Of a stretch of 64,000 nt of DNA, positions 3,307 through 29,057 are shown piece by piece (the stretch's first letter is position 1; every line of letters begins with the position of its first letter). The notes below the pieces were generated by a model. It was given only the letters and a program-made list of their open reading frames with translations. It had not been told where the DNA came from and did no database searches. The stretch lies in assembly GCA_001662655.1 (NCBI GenBank), contig KV460214.1. The stretch is one strand, 5' to 3'. Origin of the DNA: Pseudogymnoascus verrucosus (Eukaryota). The position numbers and the translations under genes were made by a program.

Positions 3307-5477
3307 ATGAGCTGCAAGCTGCTGCGGCGGCCCTACCGAGCATTTTCCTTGCAGCGGGGCCTGAGAGTTCCGCCATTAAATCGAAGGGTTATTTGTACGA
3401 GGGGGTTTGCCTCTCTGTCGCCACATCCCAAGTCAGTAAATTAAACGCCCACAATCGATTGCGATATTAACTTTAATCCAGTGCGAATCCATACGATGTA
3501 ATTGTCATCGGCGGAGGCCATGCAGGATCAGAGGCATGCGCAGCCGCTGCGAGGTCTGGTGCGCGCACTGCCTTGATCACACCGAAGCTGGACAACATTG
3601 GCGTATGTTCATGTAATCCGAGTTTCGGCGGCATTGGGAAGGGTACTATGATAAGAGAGATTGATGCTCTGGATGGTGTGGCAGGGAGAATTATTGATAA
3701 GGCTGCTGTGCAATTCAGAGTGTTGAATCGGAAAAAGGGCCCAGCTGTTTGGGTAAGTGAATCTCTTTTCTTGTTGCGTTTCAAGAAGGTGTTCTAATGA
3801 TCATTTTATTAGGGCCCGCGAGCACAAATCGACCGAGATTTATACAAAAAACACATGCTGGATGAGTTACAAGGATACCCGAACCTTTCAATAGTCCCCG
3901 GGAGCGTTGCGGATATTATCGTCTCGAAGGAAACTCTGGACGGCCAACCCTCCTCGAAAATTACTGGAGTAAGACTTGAATCTGGCGAGATTATCCCTAC
4001 CAACCAAGTCATCATAACAACAGGAACGTTTTTGGGCGGTGAAATTCACATTGGCCTAGAATGTTTTCCATCTGGGCGCATAGGCGAAGCGGCGACATTT
4101 GGACTCAGCAAGTCACTGAAAGATGCTGGGTTTAAACTTGGGAGACTGAAGACCGGAACCCCTCCGAGACTGTCAAGGAGGACCATCGACTTCAGCACAT
4201 TAGAGCAGCAGCCCGGGGATGATCCCCCGATGCCGTTCAGCTACCTCAACGACGAGGTGACAGTCAAGGAGCAGATGTTCTGTTACTCAACATACACCAA
4301 TGAGAAGGCCCACGATATTATCAGAGACAACCTTGACAAGTCTATTCATATCCGGGAGTCTGTCAAGGGCCCTCGATATTGTCCATCGCTAGAGTCGAAA
4401 ATAATTAAGTTTTCGGACAAAAAGAGCCATATAATCTGGCTTGAGCCGGAAGGATTTGACAGCGATGTCATCTATCCCAATGGGATTTCTATGACCGTTC
4501 CAGCCGAGGCACAGGAGCAAATGCTTAAGACTATACGCGGGTTGGAAAACGCCACAATGTTGCAGCCTGGTTACGGAGTTGAATATGATTATGTCGACCC
4601 AAGGAACTTGAAGTCGACTCTCGAAACGAAATCTATAGCCGGGTTGTTCCTGGCTGGCCAGATCAACGGAACTACAGGGTATGAAGAGGCTGCTGCGCAA
4701 GGAATAGTCGCTGGGATCAACGCCGGTTTAGTTTCCCAGGGCCGGGAGCCGATGATTTTGTCAAGAAGTGACGGCTACATAGGCATAATGATTGATGACC
4801 TGATAACGAAGGGCGTATCTGAGCCATACCGGATGTTCACATCACGAAGTGAATATAGGATGAGCGCTCGCGCGGACAATGCGGATTTGAGGCTCACTCC
4901 TAAAGGGCGTGCGGCTGGAGTCGTGAGTGATGCGCGGTGGTCCAGTTTCCAGGATATATCCAGCCAAATGAATGAGCTGGAACAGATTCTTCGAGCTGAT
5001 ATACGCTCTGGCCCAGCCTGGATCGACGACGGATTCGAAGTTACAAAAGATACAACTAAAAGAAGCGCATTTGACATTTTGCGTCGTGCCGGGATGAGCA
5101 TAGACAGGCTGTCGAACAAAATACCAGAGGTGCTGAAGTACAGCAAAGCGATACAGGATCGGGTTGGAATCGAAGCGGTGTATGCACCATACATTGCCCA
5201 ACAGACTGCTTCAATGAAGGTCTTTCAGATAGATGAACAACTGCATCTTCCAGTTGATTTGGACTACGGCAAGGTCCATGGCATATCCATGCACGAGAGG
5301 TTTCTTTTAGAAGCCACAAGACCTGAGTCTGTCGGCCAAGCTCGGAGGATTGAGGGCATGACTCCGACGGGTTGCTTGAGGCTCCTAGCTCACGTACAGA
5401 ACACTCGCAAACGTGAAGCCAGGGCTATTTTATATGAAGAGAACACGGCCAATAAGAGGAGGGTCGCCGGCTTGTAA
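3307..5477 (+). CDS. MTO1: Mitochondrial tRNA U34 modification flavoenzyme (MnmG/GidA family), 2 introns
   Basis: [15 protein letters not shown] motif, [61 protein letters not shown]. Arg-rich presequence; introns near 3432-3481 and 3753-3812. Confidence 0.96.
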
Positions 5478-5866
5478 GATATATGAATGTATGATAAGAT
5501 TGTATATTAGACAGATCCGGACAGCAGCAGCTTTGGGGACGTTATTATCGTTGGATAGTTACCACTAAGGAGATTCAACCATGCTTCAACATATCTCTTG
5601 TGGAGGCTATGTTGCCTTGCCCGTCGTACTTTCCGAAATACCCTACTTTAGGTTTAACAAGCTCCATTTGCTCCTTCCAGAGTTCACAGGACGGTACAGT
5701 AAGTTTGTTGGTCAATCCTTAATGTCCGCGTTCCATCTGGTTTTGTCCTGTCTATTAATTTAACTTATTCACATTTCAATTTTTGCTATCGGCCTATGCA
5801 GCCTTGATAGGTTATATACCAGCTTCCCACCGCATTCTTACATTCGGAAAGACAATACTGTCCAAA

Positions 5867-7591
5867 ATGGATGGTAGTAACTCGACAGGTGTCCATACAC
5901 TTAGTGGCGTCGCTGGACGTCATGTCCTGCCCAGCGATATGGGGTCCCAGACTGCGCCAGTCGTCAAATTTCCGTCTCCAATCCAATACCCAGTCCCTAG
6001 AGCACTTTGCGATGAAGCTCAGGTCCAATATGCTTTTAGCCAGACACATTCACACAGCAACTTTGGATATCGCGACACAGTCTATTATTCGAGTTTCCTC
6101 AGTGGCATGCGTGTGTATGCGCAGGCAGGGCCTCAATTGTCAGCTCCCTATCGACGGTCACTCAGCAACCAATATATTGAAAGCAACTTGGCCCAGCCCC
6201 ACGCCCATCAAAATACAGATTCAGGAACTAGTGCTACACTTCACCGGGAAGAACAATTGCACGTGGCATCCAAACCGATTCCATTATTCTCACAACCTGC
6301 CCCAGATGTTCTGGAAAGTGCACGAAGTTGGCAGGCAATGGAGACTACCAGCGCATTTGCCCATACACCAAACTTCCAGGTCACTATCGGGAATGTCGAT
6401 TCTCAGCAGAGAATCACGAGGTATGTTGGAGATCATGCGCACACCTCGACCAAAGTCACACTGTCCTATAGTGCTAGCGCAAATTCCCGTTCTTTGAATG
6501 CAGATGCTTTCCGCATTCACCCCTTGAATTGCTATACCGGGGACCTCAAGAGAAAATTATCTACCTCTTCCTCTTCAAGAAATCCAATCGGCTTCGCGAG
6601 AGCTTTAAGAAGCACTACCACGCCTACCGTGCCGACTCCCAGCTCCAAAACATCGTCGTCTTCACCTATTGACGAGCGGGGTTCCATGATAACTCCACCT
6701 GAGAGCATCAGCAACGAACTACAACCGGAGCGATATGACGAGTGGATGCAACAGGCTAAGAACGTGCAACTTGAAGATTTACCAGGGCTGGAAAGCTTTG
6801 AAAGCATGTCTCAAGTTTCCCAAGAAAGGATTCAGGGTCTAAGAGCCGACCCAAGCGGAAAATGGGCTGGACTAAGCGAAGAGACGATTCGCCGTATGGT
6901 GATAAAAACAAGGCTTAAGAAAAGAGCAAAGCGGAAATATGATCTGTTCTTGCGACTGCAGAAGCGGGCGCCTTCAGACAGTACAACGAATCCTCGGTTT
7001 TCACTGAGGGGGGTGCAAATGATTCAGGCCCAGGCTCGAAAGTATGGCATTGGAACGGAACCTGTCGAGGCGAGAGAAACAGTTGCTCAATTGGCTTTTT
7101 GGGATCATGAAAAGGCCGAATTTGCTAAGTTTGAGCGAGATCTGCTGTTAACACGAGGTAACACCTCTGAAGTTCTTCAGAAACAGAAAACCAAGAGGCC
7201 ATCTCAACATAAAAGGGAGTGTGAACAGTTCTCGGAAACTTTTATGCCTCAAAACGAAGATGAAAGGGAAATAAGCCCTGGCAGCACTCAGTCGAATGCT
7301 ACAGAAGTAATTAATCTCCTGGGTACCCGCTCCACCGCTAATTCCCCAGAAAGGGGAGATATGGAGCAGGAGAAAACCCCCGATTCTAAGTTCCAGATTC
7401 CGACCACCTTGGCTTTATCAAGAGGGTTTGGAGGTGCAACTTTATCTCAAATGATGGGTATTGGTGACGATGAACGGCTCATGAAGCGGCTAGTTTCTTT
7501 GGGTCCTGGAGATGCTATTTTTGACAGACAGCCTGAGTTTGCACCAGGAGAAACTACGTCGGAAACTTTGAACAATATGCCCCTGGATTAG
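5867..7591 (+). CDS. Hypothetical low-complexity (Ser/Thr/Pro-rich) protein with a basic patch, ~574 aa
   Basis: Long uninterrupted ORF (5783-7591, first ATG 5867) with a KTRLKKRAKRK NLS-like stretch; no recognisable domain. Confidence 0.65.
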   Translation: MDGSNSTGVHTLSGVAGRHVLPSDMGSQTAPVVKFPSPIQYPVPRALCDEAQVQYAFSQTHSHSNFGYRDTVYYSSFLSGMRVYAQAGPQLSAPYRRSLSNQYIESNLAQPHAHQNTDSGTSATLHREEQLHVASKPIPLFSQPAPDVLESARSWQAMETTSAFAHTPNFQVTIGNVDSQQRITRYVGDHAHTSTKVTLSYSASANSRSLNADAFRIHPLNCYTGDLKRKLSTSSSSRNPIGFARALRSTTTPTVPTPSSKTSSSSPIDERGSMITPPESISNELQPERYDEWMQQAKNVQLEDLPGLESFESMSQVSQERIQGLRADPSGKWAGLSEETIRRMVIKTRLKKRAKRKYDLFLRLQKRAPSDSTTNPRFSLRGVQMIQAQARKYGIGTEPVEARETVAQLAFWDHEKAEFAKFERDLLLTRGNTSEVLQKQKTKRPSQHKRECEQFSETFMPQNEDEREISPGSTQSNATEVINLLGTRSTANSPERGDMEQEKTPDSKFQIPTTLALSRGFGGATLSQMMGIGDDERLMKRLVSLGPGDAIFDRQPEFAPGETTSETLNNMPLD

Positions 7592-22421: not shown

Positions 22422-24493
22422 ATGGCTCCTCCAGCAGCTCCAGCTGCTGCCACAGCCGGTAGTACGAGCCGCGTGAGCGTAAGTACCTTAACCAGCCTCA
22501 ATTTAGTGGGGTTTCGTTGCTGACACCTTGCAAGCCATTCATCCAGTCTGCGGTTCAGGGAATCGCGATCTTTGTCGCCATTCAATTCGTCCTGGGGAAG
22601 TTATCGGGACAAAAGCCTGCGACGACCAAAGATGCTGCAGGAAACGTGATACCGGGCAACACCGGCGTCATTCCTCCGTATACTGCGCGACCAGACAAGC
22701 TTGCGGAAGGGGCTTCATACAATCCGATTCCGCAGCAGATCGCGCCGATATGGGAAGATAATGTCGCGGTGGACCTCGTTATTGTGGTATCCCCGACATT
22801 TGTGCATGAGCCACTCTCCAGAGTACCGAAGGAGCGGGTGATTGCAGATGAGACCGCGTTCAAAATTGGCGACTCCAGTGATAAGAGGGTTATTGACGCT
22901 GAGTTTGATGTACCGAAGGAGGTTCAAAACAATGGAACACTCTGGGGCCATTATTACATTGGAAAGACCGGAAGCACGCTCGACCCCTCAGTCGCCGGCT
23001 ATGATCCAGGAAACGCCTACCACTTCATCCGTCCTCTCACACAATATATCGCCAAGAAGAAGACCAAGAAGACCAAGAACCTTTTGACTGCGGCGGATGA
23101 AACGGAAGAGATTGATGAGGAAGACACTATCCAAGGTCCAATCATCAAATCTTTCTATCATCCAAACTTTACCATGTCGTTCGTCCCAAGCACAGGGGTT
23201 ATGTCGTACCCAAACATGCATCCTGCAGCTCGCCAGTTCACACACATCGAGTCAACTGGAGCCCGCGACGCGACTGGACAGAACGGCTGGTATTACCCTG
23301 TCTTCTTCGTCAACACATTCTGGCAACTCCGTGCCCACATGGAAGAGCTAAACTCGACCGTCACTCGTCTGCCAATCCACATTGACCTGAACAACCAGGC
23401 AAACTGGCTTTATAGCATCATTGCAAGCGTCGATGAAGGCCAGAAGGCGACTGCTAGGGCTGCTGCCATGGGAGGGCCATTGCCCCCTGGAGGAGGTGAT
23501 GGCTCCGAGTTCGAGATGATTAAGGAGGTTCTACTTGATACCAACATTTACCTGCTCGCCACGACTGTGATAGTCAGCATCTTCCACATGCTATTTGAAA
23601 TGCTCGCTTTCAAGAGCGATATTGTAAGTTTTCTCGTCGCAGATTATGTGGGTAGTTGCTAACTAGTCTAGTCGCATTTCCGCAACAAGAAGGATAACGT
23701 CGGTATTTCCGTCCGCGCCATCCTCGGAAACGTGTTTATGCAAGCTGTTATCTTCTTGTACCTCCTCGATAACAACGAGAACACCAGTTGGATGATTCTA
23801 GCTAGTCAAGGCATGGGGATCCTGCTTGAATTCTGGAAGGTAACCAAGATGGTCAACGTGCGCATTCGCCCGAACCCAAATTCCATCATCCCTTACCGCA
23901 TTGCTTTCGAAGACAAGCACAAGCTGTCCGAGACGGAAGAGAAGACAAAGGAATACGATGCCGTGGCATTCAAGTATCTCTATGCCATCGCGGTCCCGCT
24001 TCTCATCGCCTATGCTGCCTACTCTCTCATCTACGAGACGCACAAGTCGTGGTACTCCTTCATCATCGCGACTCTCGTCGGTTCCGTCTACGCCTACGGC
24101 TTCCTGATGATGGTGCCCTCGCTGTACATCAACTACCGCCTCAAGTCCGTCGCGCATATGCCAGCAAGGGCTATGACGTACAAGTTCCTCAACACGTTCA
24201 TCGACGACCTTTTCGCGTTCACGATTAAGATGCCGATGCTGCACCGCTTGGCGACGCTGCGTGACGATGTTATCTTCTTCGTGTACTTGTACCAGAGCTA
24301 TAAGTACAAGATTGATTACAAGCGCGTGAACGAGTTTGGACAAGGTGGTGATGATGAGGAGGTCGAGGAGAAGATTGCCAACAAGCCGCTGACTACTCCT
24401 GCCGGCGGGGATGCGAGTGTCAAGGTGGGAAATGCCGGTGAGGTGAAGGCATCGGGGAGCTCGAAGAAGGGAGGAGCAGCGAAGAGGAAGTAG
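22422..24493 (+). CDS. CLPTM1: CLPTM1-family ER membrane protein (lipid scramblase-like), 2 introns
   Basis: YYPVFFVNTFWQLR, LLDTNIYLL, FEMLAFKSDI, YINYRLKSVAHMP, YKFLNTFIDDLFAF, RVNEFGQ. Confidence 0.93.
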
Positions 24494-24920
24494 TGAAATT
24501 CTTCTAGTGAGTGGGATCGAGTGGCAGGGTGTAAAATTCCTAGATGCATACATAATGTCTATATACAGGAAGCGGCAGTATTTTATTGGAAGGTATGTTT
24601 CATATGGTATATTATTAATGCTGTTATAGCTACGCGATGAGGGAAATGCTAGCTCAGGTAGACAGAAAATACATAAATCAATACTCGGCCAAACCTGCAA
24701 CTTTCTTGAGGCTTTTCCGGCGAAGATCATACCACGGTGCACCTCACAAGTATAACCTTTTTAACCCCTGATATTTTAAGACAAGAAACGAAGAATACAA
24801 CAACCAGGCACAACCATCCCATATCCTCCACACCAACACCCCAAAGTCCACCACACCACCCGAACTAGCGAATAGAAACATCAACATGCCAGCGCGCACG
24901 TCCAGCGCAAGAGAAGACGC

Positions 24921-26129
24921 TTATAAGTTCTTTGTGGGCTTGGTGACGCCATCAATGACCTCGTATACCACACCCTTTGCAGCGGACGCGACATCGAGGC
25001 GCTTCTCTGCTCCGGCCATGGGTGGGACCTGAGTCCCATCCGGGAATTTGAAGTCCGCGGGCACCTTCCCATCCTTGAGAGCTCCACCGCCGAGGACTTG
25101 GGCGAGCTGCATCAGGGGGCCGGCTAATGGCACGGAGTTTATGGCGTCTGTAGTCTCGTCGCGCTTGCTTGAACCTGGGGGTTTCAACCCGCCGCCGAGG
25201 CCACCGGTAAGCATTCCCAGTAGGCCACCTAGAACATCGGCTCGGCGCTGGAGAGCTTGAGATGGGGTTTCAAGACCGCTTGGCTTGAAGTCCTTGCTGT
25301 TCTCAATGGCGTTGGTGACCTGGTCCAGTACAGCGGCTACTGTCCCTGTGCCGTCAATGCCGCCGCGCTTCTCGGATGGGGTCTTTGTGTTATCTTGGGT
25401 CTTATAGTTCTCTGCGTAGTCCTTGCTGTTTTTCAGGGCATCGTTGAAAGGGCTGAGTAACTCCCCGACTGTCTTCGTGACGTCAATGCCGTCGTTGCGC
25501 TTGCCAACTGGCTTCTTGAGGCCACCTGGGGTAAAGTCTTTGCTATAGTCCTTCTTGAGGGCTTCGTTGACAGGGTCGAAAATTTCACCTAATGCCTTCG
25601 TGACATCAATGCTGTCGCGCTTGCCAAGTAGTTGTTTGGGGTTTACTTCGTTGCCCTGGCCGAGGACAACGTCCACGGCACTCTTCAGTGTTCCCGCGAC
25701 ATCAGGGGCCTGGCGCTTGCCGCCTGGGAGCTTTGTGAGGCCGCCGGTGAGGCTCTCGACTGTGCTGGTCAACGTGTTGGTGATATCGGCGGGCGCCTCG
25801 CGCTTGCCACCAGTTGGGAGTTTTGTGATGTCACCACCCGTGATCTGGTTCAGTGCGTCGGTCAACGTCTTCGCGACATCAGGAACCTGGCGCTTGCCGC
25901 CTGGGAGCTTTGTGAGGCCGCCGGTGAGACCTCCCAATGTGGTGGTCAATGTCTCTGCGATATCGGCACGCTTTCCACCTGGGAGCTTTGTGAGGCCGCC
26001 GGTGAGCTGACCAAGTGCGCCAGTTACTGCATCCGTAACATCGACGGGCTCGCGTTGGTCGATTTTTGGGGTGGGGGCGGCGGTGAGGAGGGGGATGAGG
26101 ATGAGAACCGTGGCGAGGTGGAAATGCAT
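24921..26129 (-). CDS. Secreted Kex2-processed repeat protein (KEP), a multi-peptide precursor
   Basis: Hydrophobic signal peptide, ten dibasic KR/RR sites spaced 26-54 aa apart, repeated LTGGLTKLPGGKR units; intronless; TATA-like element at ~26290. Confidence 0.88.
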   Translation of the reverse strand: MHFHLATVLILIPLLTAAPTPKIDQREPVDVTDAVTGALGQLTGGLTKLPGGKRADIAETLTTTLGGLTGGLTKLPGGKRQVPDVAKTLTDALNQITGGDITKLPTGGKREAPADITNTLTSTVESLTGGLTKLPGGKRQAPDVAGTLKSAVDVVLGQGNEVNPKQLLGKRDSIDVTKALGEIFDPVNEALKKDYSKDFTPGGLKKPVGKRNDGIDVTKTVGELLSPFNDALKNSKDYAENYKTQDNTKTPSEKRGGIDGTGTVAAVLDQVTNAIENSKDFKPSGLETPSQALQRRADVLGGLLGMLTGGLGGGLKPPGSSKRDETTDAINSVPLAGPLMQLAQVLGGGALKDGKVPADFKFPDGTQVPPMAGAEKRLDVASAAKGVVYEVIDGVTKPTKNL

Positions 26130-27622
26130 TTTCTAGACGCGTGTTAGAATGTTATTCGACGCGACAGGGAGGGGGATGCTTACGCTGGTAGTCGAGGGGT
26201 GTCGGTGGTAGACTCGTGGGTGTGGATTGTATCCTGTCGATTGTCGTTGTTGAACAGGAAATGAGATATGGAAGGAGAATCCGTAGTCTTATATGATTTA
26301 TTTGGAGCCCCCTTTCGCCAATATGTCTCCCGAACCTGCACCGAAGTCAAGTAACGCAGGCAATTTCCTCGCGTCAGACATGTTTTGGAGTCGGGTGACT
26401 GAGGATGGATTGCTGCAGTTGATGATAACGCGTGTGAGACGTTTGTGTGAGACGGCTTCCCAGGCATCGTTCCGAGTGAGTGGGGTGCAGGCGACCCCTT
26501 GCATCCCCAACGGGGCCGAATACATTTGTTCACTGCTCTGGAGTATAATTACAGGCGAAATACATGACTCCAAGTAAAAATAACATGTTAAGATATTTAT
26601 TTGCGGCCTTAATGTATTACGTTCAGCAGTTTGTTGCCGTGAGTCCAGTACAGAGAGCAATTGGATTTCGGCGATCTTGGGGGTATTCAGATCCTGAAAA
26701 CAGGTGCAAGAGATGAGACCGCAGTAAGGAGTAAACTAGTGGTAAAGACCTTACGTCTATGAAAAGACTTGTTTCTATGGGATTATAACGAGGCTAATGT
26801 GTTTTGGATATGGAAACTGGGTGCTAAAAGCAGCATATCACTGCAGAAAGGGGGGTAGTTATCGTCGTTCTCTATTTAAATTATACTGTGCGGTATTACA
26901 AACTTTGGGCACACAGTGATTGCATTGGCATGTGCCGAAATAATTGAATACAGCAGTTGGATCAAGATGCCCGACGAGAACTTGATCGTTTCGAATTGTG
27001 AGACTTTTGAGGCATTTGGGATGAGGCGAATGGGAAAGCCGTGTGGCCATCACGTCGTACGGTGCTTGGCCCACCCCAGAGCAAGTTTCTCAGTTGGGAA
27101 TGATCCCGGTGTGGTAGTAGAGTAACACTTCACGAATCAAGTTTAAGCGTATTACTGATCTGCAGGTACAAATTTCCAAGCCGCATTAGTCGTCATGCAG
27201 GGGATTATAACGTATGTGACCATCACTTATGGTAGATGGCTTTTTGTGACCCAAGCCGCAATTGTTAGGAGCCAATAAAAATCAGTCGGTGAGCAGTCGT
27301 AGTTAATTACCTTGGAATTATGTATATTATTTTCTCTACTGAGCATAGTTACAAGTTGGTGAAGCTTTACGCTGTGAAAATACGCCCGTGGCTCCGTTAG
27401 TTTGACTACATTTCTCATTTTTATCATCAAGGCCAGATGCATTTACAAGCTTAGAATACAACGTAATAAACATTATGTGATTTTAAAATACTGGTAACTA
27501 ATCAACAATAGATGAACTGGCCCTTATTCCTCGATTGCAACCAAATGACAAATGATGCATTCTCTGGTAGGCATGCTTGGACGTCTCCATCCTTCAACCC
27601 CGAACACAAAAAGGGCGTCTAT

Positions 27623-27826
27623 TTAAGCGGGGGTCGGAGCTGCTGGGGCTCCAGGAACAGGAATAGCAGGAATAGCCCCCAATAGCGCACCAAGTCCGGC
27701 AATAGCCGAATTTATTGGCTGGGTGAGACTGATGGTAGTATGTGGTGGGTTGCCGTTGTTTTTACCACCCAGTCCAGCAAGTGCGAGAGGCGCGAGGAGG
27801 AAGACGACTGCGACTTGGAATTTCAT
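27623..27826 (-). CDS. Small secreted peptide, 67 aa
   Basis: MKFQVAVVFLLAPLALA signal peptide, then a hydrophobic Gly/Ala helix and a Pro-rich tail. CTAAC..TAG just before the ATG suggests a 5'-UTR intron; TATAAA at ~27970-27975. Confidence 0.7.
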   Translation of the reverse strand: MKFQVAVVFLLAPLALAGLGGKNNGNPPHTTISLTQPINSAIAGLGALLGAIPAIPVPGAPAAPTPA

Positions 27827-29057
27827 GTTCTATAAAATAGTTAGACTGGATAGCTGGAAATGGGGATGGAGAGCACTTGCGTTGGTGGCGAGGGACGTTT
27901 GTGGAAGCTTTCCGGTGAATTTTTTTGGGGTTTTAGGTTCGAGGGACAGAGGGTAGAGGGTGTGTTGGGTTTATATTGAACGCTGGGGGCTGGATCGGGC
28001 GATCAGAGATTCTAATATAGCTGGCTGTCTTGGCCTCTCAACAGGTCTCAGCGAACATCCACAGTTCAAAACGGGGTTATCCAATGGGCCCTGATGACTA
28101 CAGCAGAGAAGCAACATCGTGAGACCTCCTGTCTGACGATAATTCCACCGCTGTACAACAATGCGACAATGGCCATTTTCACTACCAGCCTGCTGTGAAA
28201 AGGGGTATCGGGTATCAAGCATTTATTGATACATCGTCATACGCGACACGAGAAACGGCTGCATCAACACGACGACAAACTCGAGTATGTTATTTGACCC
28301 CATAATAATGTCTGATAGAAGAGTTGATGTTTGGCCATTGTTGGAACAAGTGTGTTTACCATGTAATTTCATTGCTCTTTTGGAGAGCTCTACCTCGCAG
28401 TAGTAAGTAATATGAGAAACATTCACCATCACAGTGCAGATGCAGAGTGTTGTGGTCTCACGTCGCGACGCAGTAATTTCCAGATTCGCGCGACGTGTCG
28501 TAAAACCGAACTTCTACCTCTCTGTCTTGGGCGCGTAGAGCATGCAGATCTCCGTTCCTTACCCCGCGATCGCGGAGCTCTTGAATCACCAGCCGTGTGT
28601 GGTAGCATCTGCTTTGATGCAGCGCGGACCGATTACATTCAGGACTCGATCTTTATGAACTGTTGTGATTAACTTTTTCATAATTTCGTTGGTCGAAACG
28701 CGTCGAGATCTCAGGAAGTGAAGCATAACACCAATCCTCAAGAGGCCAATGGCCCGGGTCAGCCGCCAGCAATTTGCAAGCTCAAACCTAGACACATTTA
28801 ACGTGAAGGTATTGGTCTGATCCGACGGGAAGAACCTTCTTCATATTGCTTAGCTCTATATGACGCGTGACATGGAAGCACAACGCGAAACTCGCGTCTG
28901 TCTCTCATATTACATTTCCTCCTGTTTCTCTGTCCCTTGCCGTTCTCCTCGCGCCCAGATTACTACAGTCCCACTTGCTTTGGCATTTCTCAGCCATTCA
29001 CTGGTGGTCCATTCTCTCCTCCACGGTTGTGCTGCCATATCACCGCTACGCAGCGCC

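Follow-up and report, generated by a model that had tools for sequence, protein, structure and literature searches.

A predicted Kex2-processed precursor of mostly acidic, amphipathic peptides in Pseudogymnoascus and its possible role as a surface coat

Secreted fungal precursors in which Kex2 sites separate repeated peptides (KEPs) have a common layout, 7,878 of them having been counted in 1,461 fungal genomes, and very few of the linear peptides that they encode have a known function. Rep1 from Ustilago maydis gives rise to ten amphipathic peptides of 35-53 aa that form surface-active fibrils (PMC4617103; PMC3133707). In the candidalysin precursor Ece1, likewise a polyprotein, KR separates units that are not identical to each other and have the character of amphipathic helices (PMC12153327), and the Thr/Gly/Val-rich, aromatic-poor helix of perilipin 4 coats oil (PMC5889406). 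In the KEP catalogue of Umemura 2020 (PMC7329392, Table S2), type 140 consists of eight rows, all of them from Pseudogymnoascus, of which 0/8 are marked DUF3328 and which carry in this table neither a pheromone mark nor an HMM profile.

A 64,000-nucleotide stretch of contig KV460214.1 from Pseudogymnoascus verrucosus (the window) contains on its minus strand a gene of this kind, with the following features.

24921..26129, minus strand: precursor ORF P0001, 402 aa, a single coding exon that reads open without internal stop
26079..26129, minus strand: predicted signal peptide, residues 1-17; the first 21 residues are identical to the P. destructans orthologue
26052..26078, minus strand: short pro-segment ending in IDQR, with an aliphatic residue at P4 and Arg at P1 in the sequence
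25713..26051, minus strand: units 1-4, type A, of 26, 24, 28 and 27 aa when trimmed, with charges of -2, -1, -1 and -2 and GG-KR ends
25617..25712, minus strand: unit 5, divergent type A, 30 aa, with a Gln start and a G-KR end
25365..25616, minus strand: units 6 and 7, type B, 38 and 42 aa, with charges of -1 and -3
25242..25364, minus strand: unit 8, distant type B, 39 aa, charge -3, with an RR end
25161..25241, minus strand: unit 9, Gly/Leu-rich, 25 aa, neutral, the most hydrophobic unit (GRAVY 0.57)
24999..25160, minus strand: unit 10, 52 aa, charge -4
24924..24998, minus strand: unit 11, 25 aa, neutral, with a free C-terminus

Ten dibasic sites (9 KR and 1 RR) split the 402-aa protein, as the first-pass annotation had described, and 10,000 composition-preserving shuffles contained 1.44 such sites on average and 6 at most, so that 0/10,000 reached ten. 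All Arg residues (12/12) fall within KR, RR/QRR or the first QR, and the composition bears out the claimed lack of Cys (Cys = 0), Trp being likewise 0 and Tyr 1.1%. Kex2 is reported to have a P4 preference and an LxxR motif, and the aliphatic P4 residue backs IDQR (PMC8528282), which is likely a non-canonical Kex2 site. Cuts there and at the ten dibasic sites would give 11 units with net charges from -4 to 0, none of them cationic and only units 9 and 11 neutral. For the P. destructans orthologue a SignalP score of 0.83, with position 18 marked, has been tabulated (PMC5810475 supplement).

Six units end in G-KR and 9/11 carry D-[VI] near their start, both as previously described. Type A had been said to occur four times plus a variant, and in agreement with this units 1-4 show pairwise identities of 55-76% and unit 5 is 38-44% identical to them. 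In the case of type B, of which three copies had been claimed, units 6 and 7 fit the pattern (52% identity) but unit 8 is just 36-37% identical to either; units 9 and 10 share 51%. At the DNA level a 96-nt repeat occurs in three copies within type A and a 66-nt repeat links units 6, 7 and 8, which confirms tandem duplication of units. The gene is single copy in its own genome, as judged with two different queries. Read contigs from run X22 span 30/30 bins of the ORF, and among 10 listed variant positions inside the ORF from other sequencing runs, 6 are synonymous, 4 change a residue and 0 introduce a stop. The frames at 25609-26010 (plus strand) and 23798-24730 (minus strand) were rejected as genes, being antisense by-products (shadow ORFs).

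A word-indexed protein search gave 8 matches among 7,999 scored candidates, all of them from named Pseudogymnoascus, and when 1.84 billion representatives were searched with a profile, 12 matched, 9 of them new (6 from Pseudogymnoascus and 3 without an organism label). There were no named matches outside Pseudogymnoascus in these database searches, and hence no Rep1; no Candida protein was among the matches of the precursor either. The family occurs in many strains besides the pathogen P. destructans. Its signal region is nearly constant, whereas the units turn over: complete precursors hold 6-14 units, close orthologues match unit by unit with median identities of 80-100%, and units of distant members are 34-45% like those of the close clade, except in the fragment P0014 (69%). 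Some distant members hold identical internal copies of a unit.

Close relatives of P0001 are already catalogued as KEP type 140, for which the table gives a number alone (PMC7329392). Seven of the eight rows correspond to OAF63140.1/ELR08764.1, OBT88483.1, OBT78838.1, KFY71438.1, KFZ14528.1 and OBT48351.1; two type 140 proteins share the 90% cluster of P0001, and KFZ14528.1 is 96% identical to P0001 at 100% query cover (phmmer E 7e-242). The high similarity over >70% of the length to a listed member that defines the type was thus found, with phmmer in place of the reciprocal BLASTP of that paper, and the 11 units of 24-52 aa agree with the definition of a KEP as at least three tandem repeats of 8-100 aa between Kex2 sites. 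The divergent members P0008, P0009 and P0013-P0021 are absent from the eight rows. The genus Pseudogymnoascus does not appear in four text supplements of Le Marquer 2019 (PMC6339444), the locus tag VC83_00331 of the P. destructans orthologue was not found in main texts of the open literature, and a search of this open literature turned up no description or test of the family. The family had been called uncharacterised, which holds for its function but not for its existence, as it is already catalogued.

No Pfam match over cut-off was obtained for P0001 (2 weak matches), P0023, P0025, P0017, P0018 or P0008 (3 weak), and a PDB sequence search with the precursor returned 3 matches with a best E of 0.22. 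In the Atlas the best feature score was 0.79, below the usable level, and residues 27-171 had no named match. A search for proteins of 30-63 aa matched 0/133 candidates, and a metagenome scan with the family alignment confirmed 0/100 stretches. The precursor gene is a real gene of a known, common kind whose relatives are already numbered, and because the layout is common and the family catalogued, it is no surprise as such.

For family statistics 15 proteins were used, leaving out the near-duplicates P0002, P0003, P0010-P0012 and P0022 and the fragment P0021; P0003 was added for the comparison of unit turnover. Among 101 distinct internal units, 83 are acidic, 16 neutral and 2 net positive. 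The hydrophobic moment of the units peaks at 100 degrees (z 11.8), whereas at 160-180 degrees, the range of beta periodicity, it falls below that of shuffles (z -3.5 to -5.0). Because the units are related, such z values make them look more independent than they are; a reduced set of 54 units with <60% identity still gave a moment z of 8.8 and 26% Thr on the flanks vs 10% (z 9.0). A Pro-free 14-mer is present in 103/109 units, and the best 14-mer has a core with 78% Leu/Val/Ile/Phe/Met (null 45%), flanks with 30% Thr (null 10%) and a polar face with 31% Asp/Glu and 19% Gly. The first-pass annotation had proposed amphipathic units, which is strongly borne out for the family as a whole but individually for only 6/11 units of the precursor: the helical moment exceeded shuffles (p<0.05) in all but units 1, 2, 5, 9 and 10, unit 1 having been scored one residue short. 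In chemical terms only, the design resembles that of perilipin 4, with Thr, Gly and Val enriched and aromatics scarce (PMC5889406). Perilipin 4, however, is one very long cytosolic helix, whereas the family helices are short, richer in Leu/Ile, acidic, and likely secreted and cut, and no homology is claimed.

Across the 15 family proteins, KR/RR holds 120 of 161 Arg residues. An acidic residue stands at P1', P2' or P4' in 88/105 distinct sites vs 83/206 lone Lys, and in 10/10 sites of the precursor, which agrees with the reported preference of Kex2 for acidic residues at these positions (PMC2515848); this signal overlaps the D-[VI] motif at the start of the units and is not independent of it. 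The genome also contains a proprotein-convertase P-domain gene. The precursor is very probably processed by Kex2 and Kex1 into peptides, and the claim of a secreted, lineage-specific polyprotein of the Kex2 type is supported by the dibasic excess, the cut-site context, the SignalP call for the orthologue and the distribution of relatives.

The same data bear on whether the precursor might stay uncut, as a repeat protein of wall or matrix in which KR is a by-product of the repeats. Some sites in relatives have drifted to ER, SR, QR or KH, as this would predict. However, the drifted sites mostly keep the P1 Arg, KR persists at unit borders where the remaining sequence has diverged, N-glycosylation sequons number 2 where 16.1 are expected, and the precursor sequence has no hydrophobic C-terminal anchor tail, so that an uncut protein appears improbable.

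RNA from the P. destructans orthologue (VC83_00331, P0006) ranges from 49 to 1,491 CPM over 10 samples and is present both in culture and on bats (PMC5810475). The difference between culture and bats is not significant (log2 change -1.14, FDR 0.33; PMC5810475), the trend being probably toward bats. The two neighbouring genes vary far less (SEC22 29-68 CPM, CLPTM1 90-335 CPM), the spread between samples being about 30-fold for VC83_00331 and 2- to 4-fold for SEC22 and CLPTM1 (PMC5810475). In a second study, VC83_00331 RNA on European Myotis myotis exceeded that on either of the North American bats E. fuscus and M. lucifugus by a factor of 10-12 (adjusted p 4e-4 to 1.1e-3). With the threshold chosen by the authors this difference counts as a 'no', and isolate of the fungus and setting are confounded with the bat species (PMC7549942). 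The protein was weakly detected in a washed-cell proteome at an abundance rank of about 4,175-4,293, where two columns without a label contain the values 2 and 1, which are probably numbers of peptides (PMC13208438). KR is a cleavage site of trypsin as well, so that detection is no proof of processing. Together the data establish that the gene is real and regulated, and no disease role follows from them.

The reading that we favour, tentatively and with slightly less than even confidence, is a surface-coating role like that of Rep1. The protein would enter the ER, Kex2 would cut after each site and Kex1 would trim the ends, so that 11 linear peptides leave the cell. These mostly acidic peptides of 24-52 residues are predicted to form amphipathic helices at hydrophobic surfaces and may jointly cover hyphae, spores or nearby lipid and air-water interfaces with a surface-active layer. 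Each unit would begin with an acidic cap (D-[VI]) and continue as a helix of some 14 residues, with Leu/Val/Ile in the core, Thr on the flanks and a face of Asp/Gly/Lys; a Pro/Gly tail, by which KR likely stays accessible, would follow. In some units the N-terminal Gln would cyclise to pyroglutamate. The sites, their context, the unit design and the variation in unit number come from sequence, and the signal peptide, transcription and detection from data on the orthologue; from these we infer cleavage, Kex1 trimming, Gln cyclisation, helix formation and the coating role.

A coat is favoured over receptor binding or lysis because the design is conserved under fast turnover, the units are acidic, aromatics are scarce and sequons are depleted; a design that is kept while the sequence turns over is what a bulk surface property would be expected to show. 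The dibasic excess, the retention of Arg mainly for cuts and the convertase P-domain gene also speak for it. On the other side, the low rank of the orthologue in the washed-cell proteome is unlike that of an abundant coat, although small or SDS-insoluble peptides could be missed there, the RNA of the orthologue is moderate, little more than half of the precursor units are individually amphipathic, and knockouts of six kep genes in Coprinopsis gave no phenotype (PMC9769878). A replacement for hydrophobin is also not needed, because the genome has one class I hydrophobin-like gene (L003:1441-1837, plus strand, contig C5, with two apparent introns); a class II hydrophobin search of the genome, run without positive control, was empty.

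Like Rep1, the precursor has a predicted signal peptide and Kex2 sites that divide roughly twelve imperfect repeats of amphipathic character, which would give 11 products, and it lacks a Ste13 signature. The precursor units are mostly shorter (24-52 vs 35-53 aa) and there is no 228-aa terminal product; moreover, amyloid-like fibrils and a role at the hyphal surface have been shown for Rep1, whereas a surface role of the precursor peptides is a prediction. It may thus work like Rep1, and membership in the Rep1 family is not claimed.

A candidalysin-like, membrane-active role had also been suggested for these peptides. In the form closest to Ece1, unit 9 or the conserved unit 11 would be membrane-active and the acidic units would escort it, so that it stays soluble and does no harm while it is being secreted. 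Units of both precursors are heterogeneous (PMC12153327), units 9 and 11 are the only neutral ones, and unit 11 is kept at 88-96% identity in four close orthologues. Net-positive units, of which the family has two among 101, occur in P0006 alone, the P. destructans protein whose RNA was increased on M. myotis (PMC7549942). However, the precursor has 10 sites vs 7 in Ece1 and no cationic unit, 99/101 distinct family units are neutral or acidic, unit 11 is just 20-68% identical in distant members, and the family is found in many strains besides the pathogen. The difference between culture and bats is not significant (PMC5810475), and the bat comparison is confounded and below the authors' threshold (PMC7549942). 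The predominance of neutral and acidic units disfavours a lytic role, and we regard the Ece1-like reading as clearly unlikely.

A similarly small probability is given to signalling, in which the units would be secreted hormones or self/non-self cues that are read by receptors and protected by pyroglutamate. Gln occupies P1' in 37/105 distinct family sites (background 3%) and Gly occupies P3 in 47/105 (background 13%). The resulting Q...G-KR outline recalls animal pGlu...amide peptides. Fast lineage-specific turnover of units and the wide RNA spread of the orthologue (PMC5810475) would also suit signalling, and the N-terminal Gln of other KEP peptides has been observed to cyclise (PMC9769878). 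We rejected amidation at the G-KR ends, as PAM, the enzyme that amidates peptides, is reported to be lacking from fungi as a whole (PMC6529398) and a search of the genome for the PHM domain (PF01082), without positive control, gave no match; the Gly before KR is better read as part of the flexible tail. Ste13-type dipeptides, which the first-pass annotation had pointed out, do not hold up as a family feature: X-Ala or X-Pro follows the cut at 19/105 distinct sites (18%) vs an Ala plus Pro background of 17.5%, and Ste13 trimming, the mark used for hormone candidates in PMC6339444, was rejected. A DPPIV_N gene is present in the genome. In addition, type 140 carries no pheromone mark while Pseudogymnoascus is also listed under another, pheromone-rich KEP type (PMC7329392), and what the units have in common is their physical design, with no recognition motif that stays fixed.

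The genus Pseudogymnoascus is known for cold habitats. The family is confined to it, P. destructans is listed as psychrophilic and Thr is concentrated on the helix flanks, so that acidic helices might bind membranes or ice outside the wall and protect against cold or desiccation; for species that are osmo- and xerotolerant, it has been speculated that KEP peptides have a structural role (PMC6339444). However, Thr in the non-polar face also marks oil-coating helices (PMC5889406) and no ice-binding family matched in the Pfam search, which makes protection of this kind very unlikely, if marginally less so than an uncut protein. Least probable is the dikaritin-type RiPP precursor to which the protein had been likened, its cores cyclised by a DUF3328/UstYa enzyme: it shares the signal peptide and Kex2 repeats and the genome has 12 UstYa matches, but 0/12 lie on contig C9, which carries the precursor, 0/8 type 140 rows are marked DUF3328 (PMC7329392), the neighbours are housekeeping genes, Tyr and Trp are scarce or absent and the units are long and heterogeneous.

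Should the peptides prove surface-active, an ascomycete would have a Rep1-like system, from which small biosurfactants adapted to the cold could be obtained. Going beyond the coating role, Pseudogymnoascus might have evolved a genus-wide secreted peptide-surfactant kit, independent of the smut repellents: short, acidic helices with Thr on their flanks and a chemistry like that of lipid-droplet coats, which a single polyprotein would release and which would wet, emulsify or cover lipid and air-water interfaces at low temperature. A hydrophobic companion peptide encoded by a sister gene would belong to this kit. This extension by analogy is speculative and rather unlikely; if true, Rep1 would have an equivalent among ascomycetes, and the kit might explain how these fungi, among them the bat pathogen, establish themselves on greasy skin, keratin and cave surfaces. 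Since very few linear KEP peptides have a known function, any firm result on the precursor peptides would count, and what is added here to the catalogue number is a testable peptide design across the genus, a single-copy gene, conserved neighbours, expression data for the white-nose orthologue and a companion gene.

The precursor had been placed between housekeeping genes, and the CLPTM1-SEC22 interval is confirmed for the window and for P. destructans, both of which show the order ASXH (VC83_00329), SEC22 (00330), precursor (00331), CLPTM1 (00332) and LOG (00333). A gene model of another strain (P0009) fuses SEC22 to the precursor. Among 79 metagenome loci around CLPTM1, most of which are too short or rearranged to tell, none contained the precursor family or the companion gene, and in 7/79 SEC22 lay no more than 3-4 kb downstream, two of these loci having the same coordinates and one being inverted. 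In 6/7 such loci inspected, a different frame lies between the two genes.

L012:6909-7800, L018:10389-11280, L019:10557-11580, L046:10599-11612, L054:5425-7010 and L056:3271-3925, plus strand: conserved frame between CLPTM1 and SEC22 in other fungi

One of these frames was scanned and gave no Pfam match, and one query with its protein found nothing in the P. verrucosus genome. As other fungi carry a different frame there, the CLPTM1-SEC22 block appears to be old and the precursor a lineage-specific occupant. An origin of the interval by RIP or from a transposon was rejected, the indices being unremarkable. At L010:9700-15200, CLPTM1 is followed by genes that by eye resemble those at 9.7-18.3 kb of the window (proteasome subunit, dioxygenase-like, thioredoxin-like, sugar-nucleotide transporter), which hints at local rearrangement. 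The window also contains a 610-aa stop-free frame at 5759-7591 (plus strand), without Pfam match at E 0.01.

Upstream of the precursor ORF the following features were recognised.

26133..26183, minus strand: predicted 5' UTR intron of the precursor gene, 51 nt, with GT donor, CTAAC branch point and AG acceptor 3 nt before the ATG
26288..26294, minus strand: TATA-like element of the precursor gene, from sequence
26338-26381, minus strand: upstream ATG and exon of several public gene models, adding 26-51 residues before the signal peptide
27623..27826, minus strand: companion small gene P0023, 67 aa, with a signal-like N-terminus, a hydrophobic Gly/Ala/Leu/Pro-rich body, 0 KR and 0 Cys
27830..27880, minus strand: predicted 51-nt 5' UTR intron of the companion gene, suggested by its motifs (GC donor, CTAAC, AG 3 nt before the ATG)

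The TATA-like element and the position of the predicted 51-nt intron point to MHFHL as the true start of the precursor. The N-terminal extension in public models is likely an artefact, because the TATA-like element lies downstream of the ATG at 26381, and the upstream-extended gene models, with a promoter-like element inside the extension, were rejected. Such an extension could hide the signal peptide of the precursor. Read contigs from runs X11 (RNA on record), X5 and X1 (the kind of both being guessed) cover the ORF in part and contain no joint at the predicted intron.

The companion gene lies upstream of the precursor on the same strand and had been missed in the first-pass annotation. Alignment of the 5' regions of the two genes scored 104 vs a shuffle mean of 73 (2/1,000 shuffles reach it) and a best score of 89 among 944 control stretches of the window. 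The signal-peptide profile of the family ranks the companion gene 2nd of 1,305 frames (E 0.0027), while with the unit profile it was not among the top 8 listed, so that the two genes likely share the ancestry of a 5' module, a claim limited to this module and not extended to the body of the protein. The annotation of P. destructans has no numbered gene between SEC22 and the precursor, and the companion gene is therefore absent or unannotated there. A search for relatives of the companion matched 2/19 candidates, and in one strain the companion is annotated (V501_03226) beside the precursor (V501_03227).
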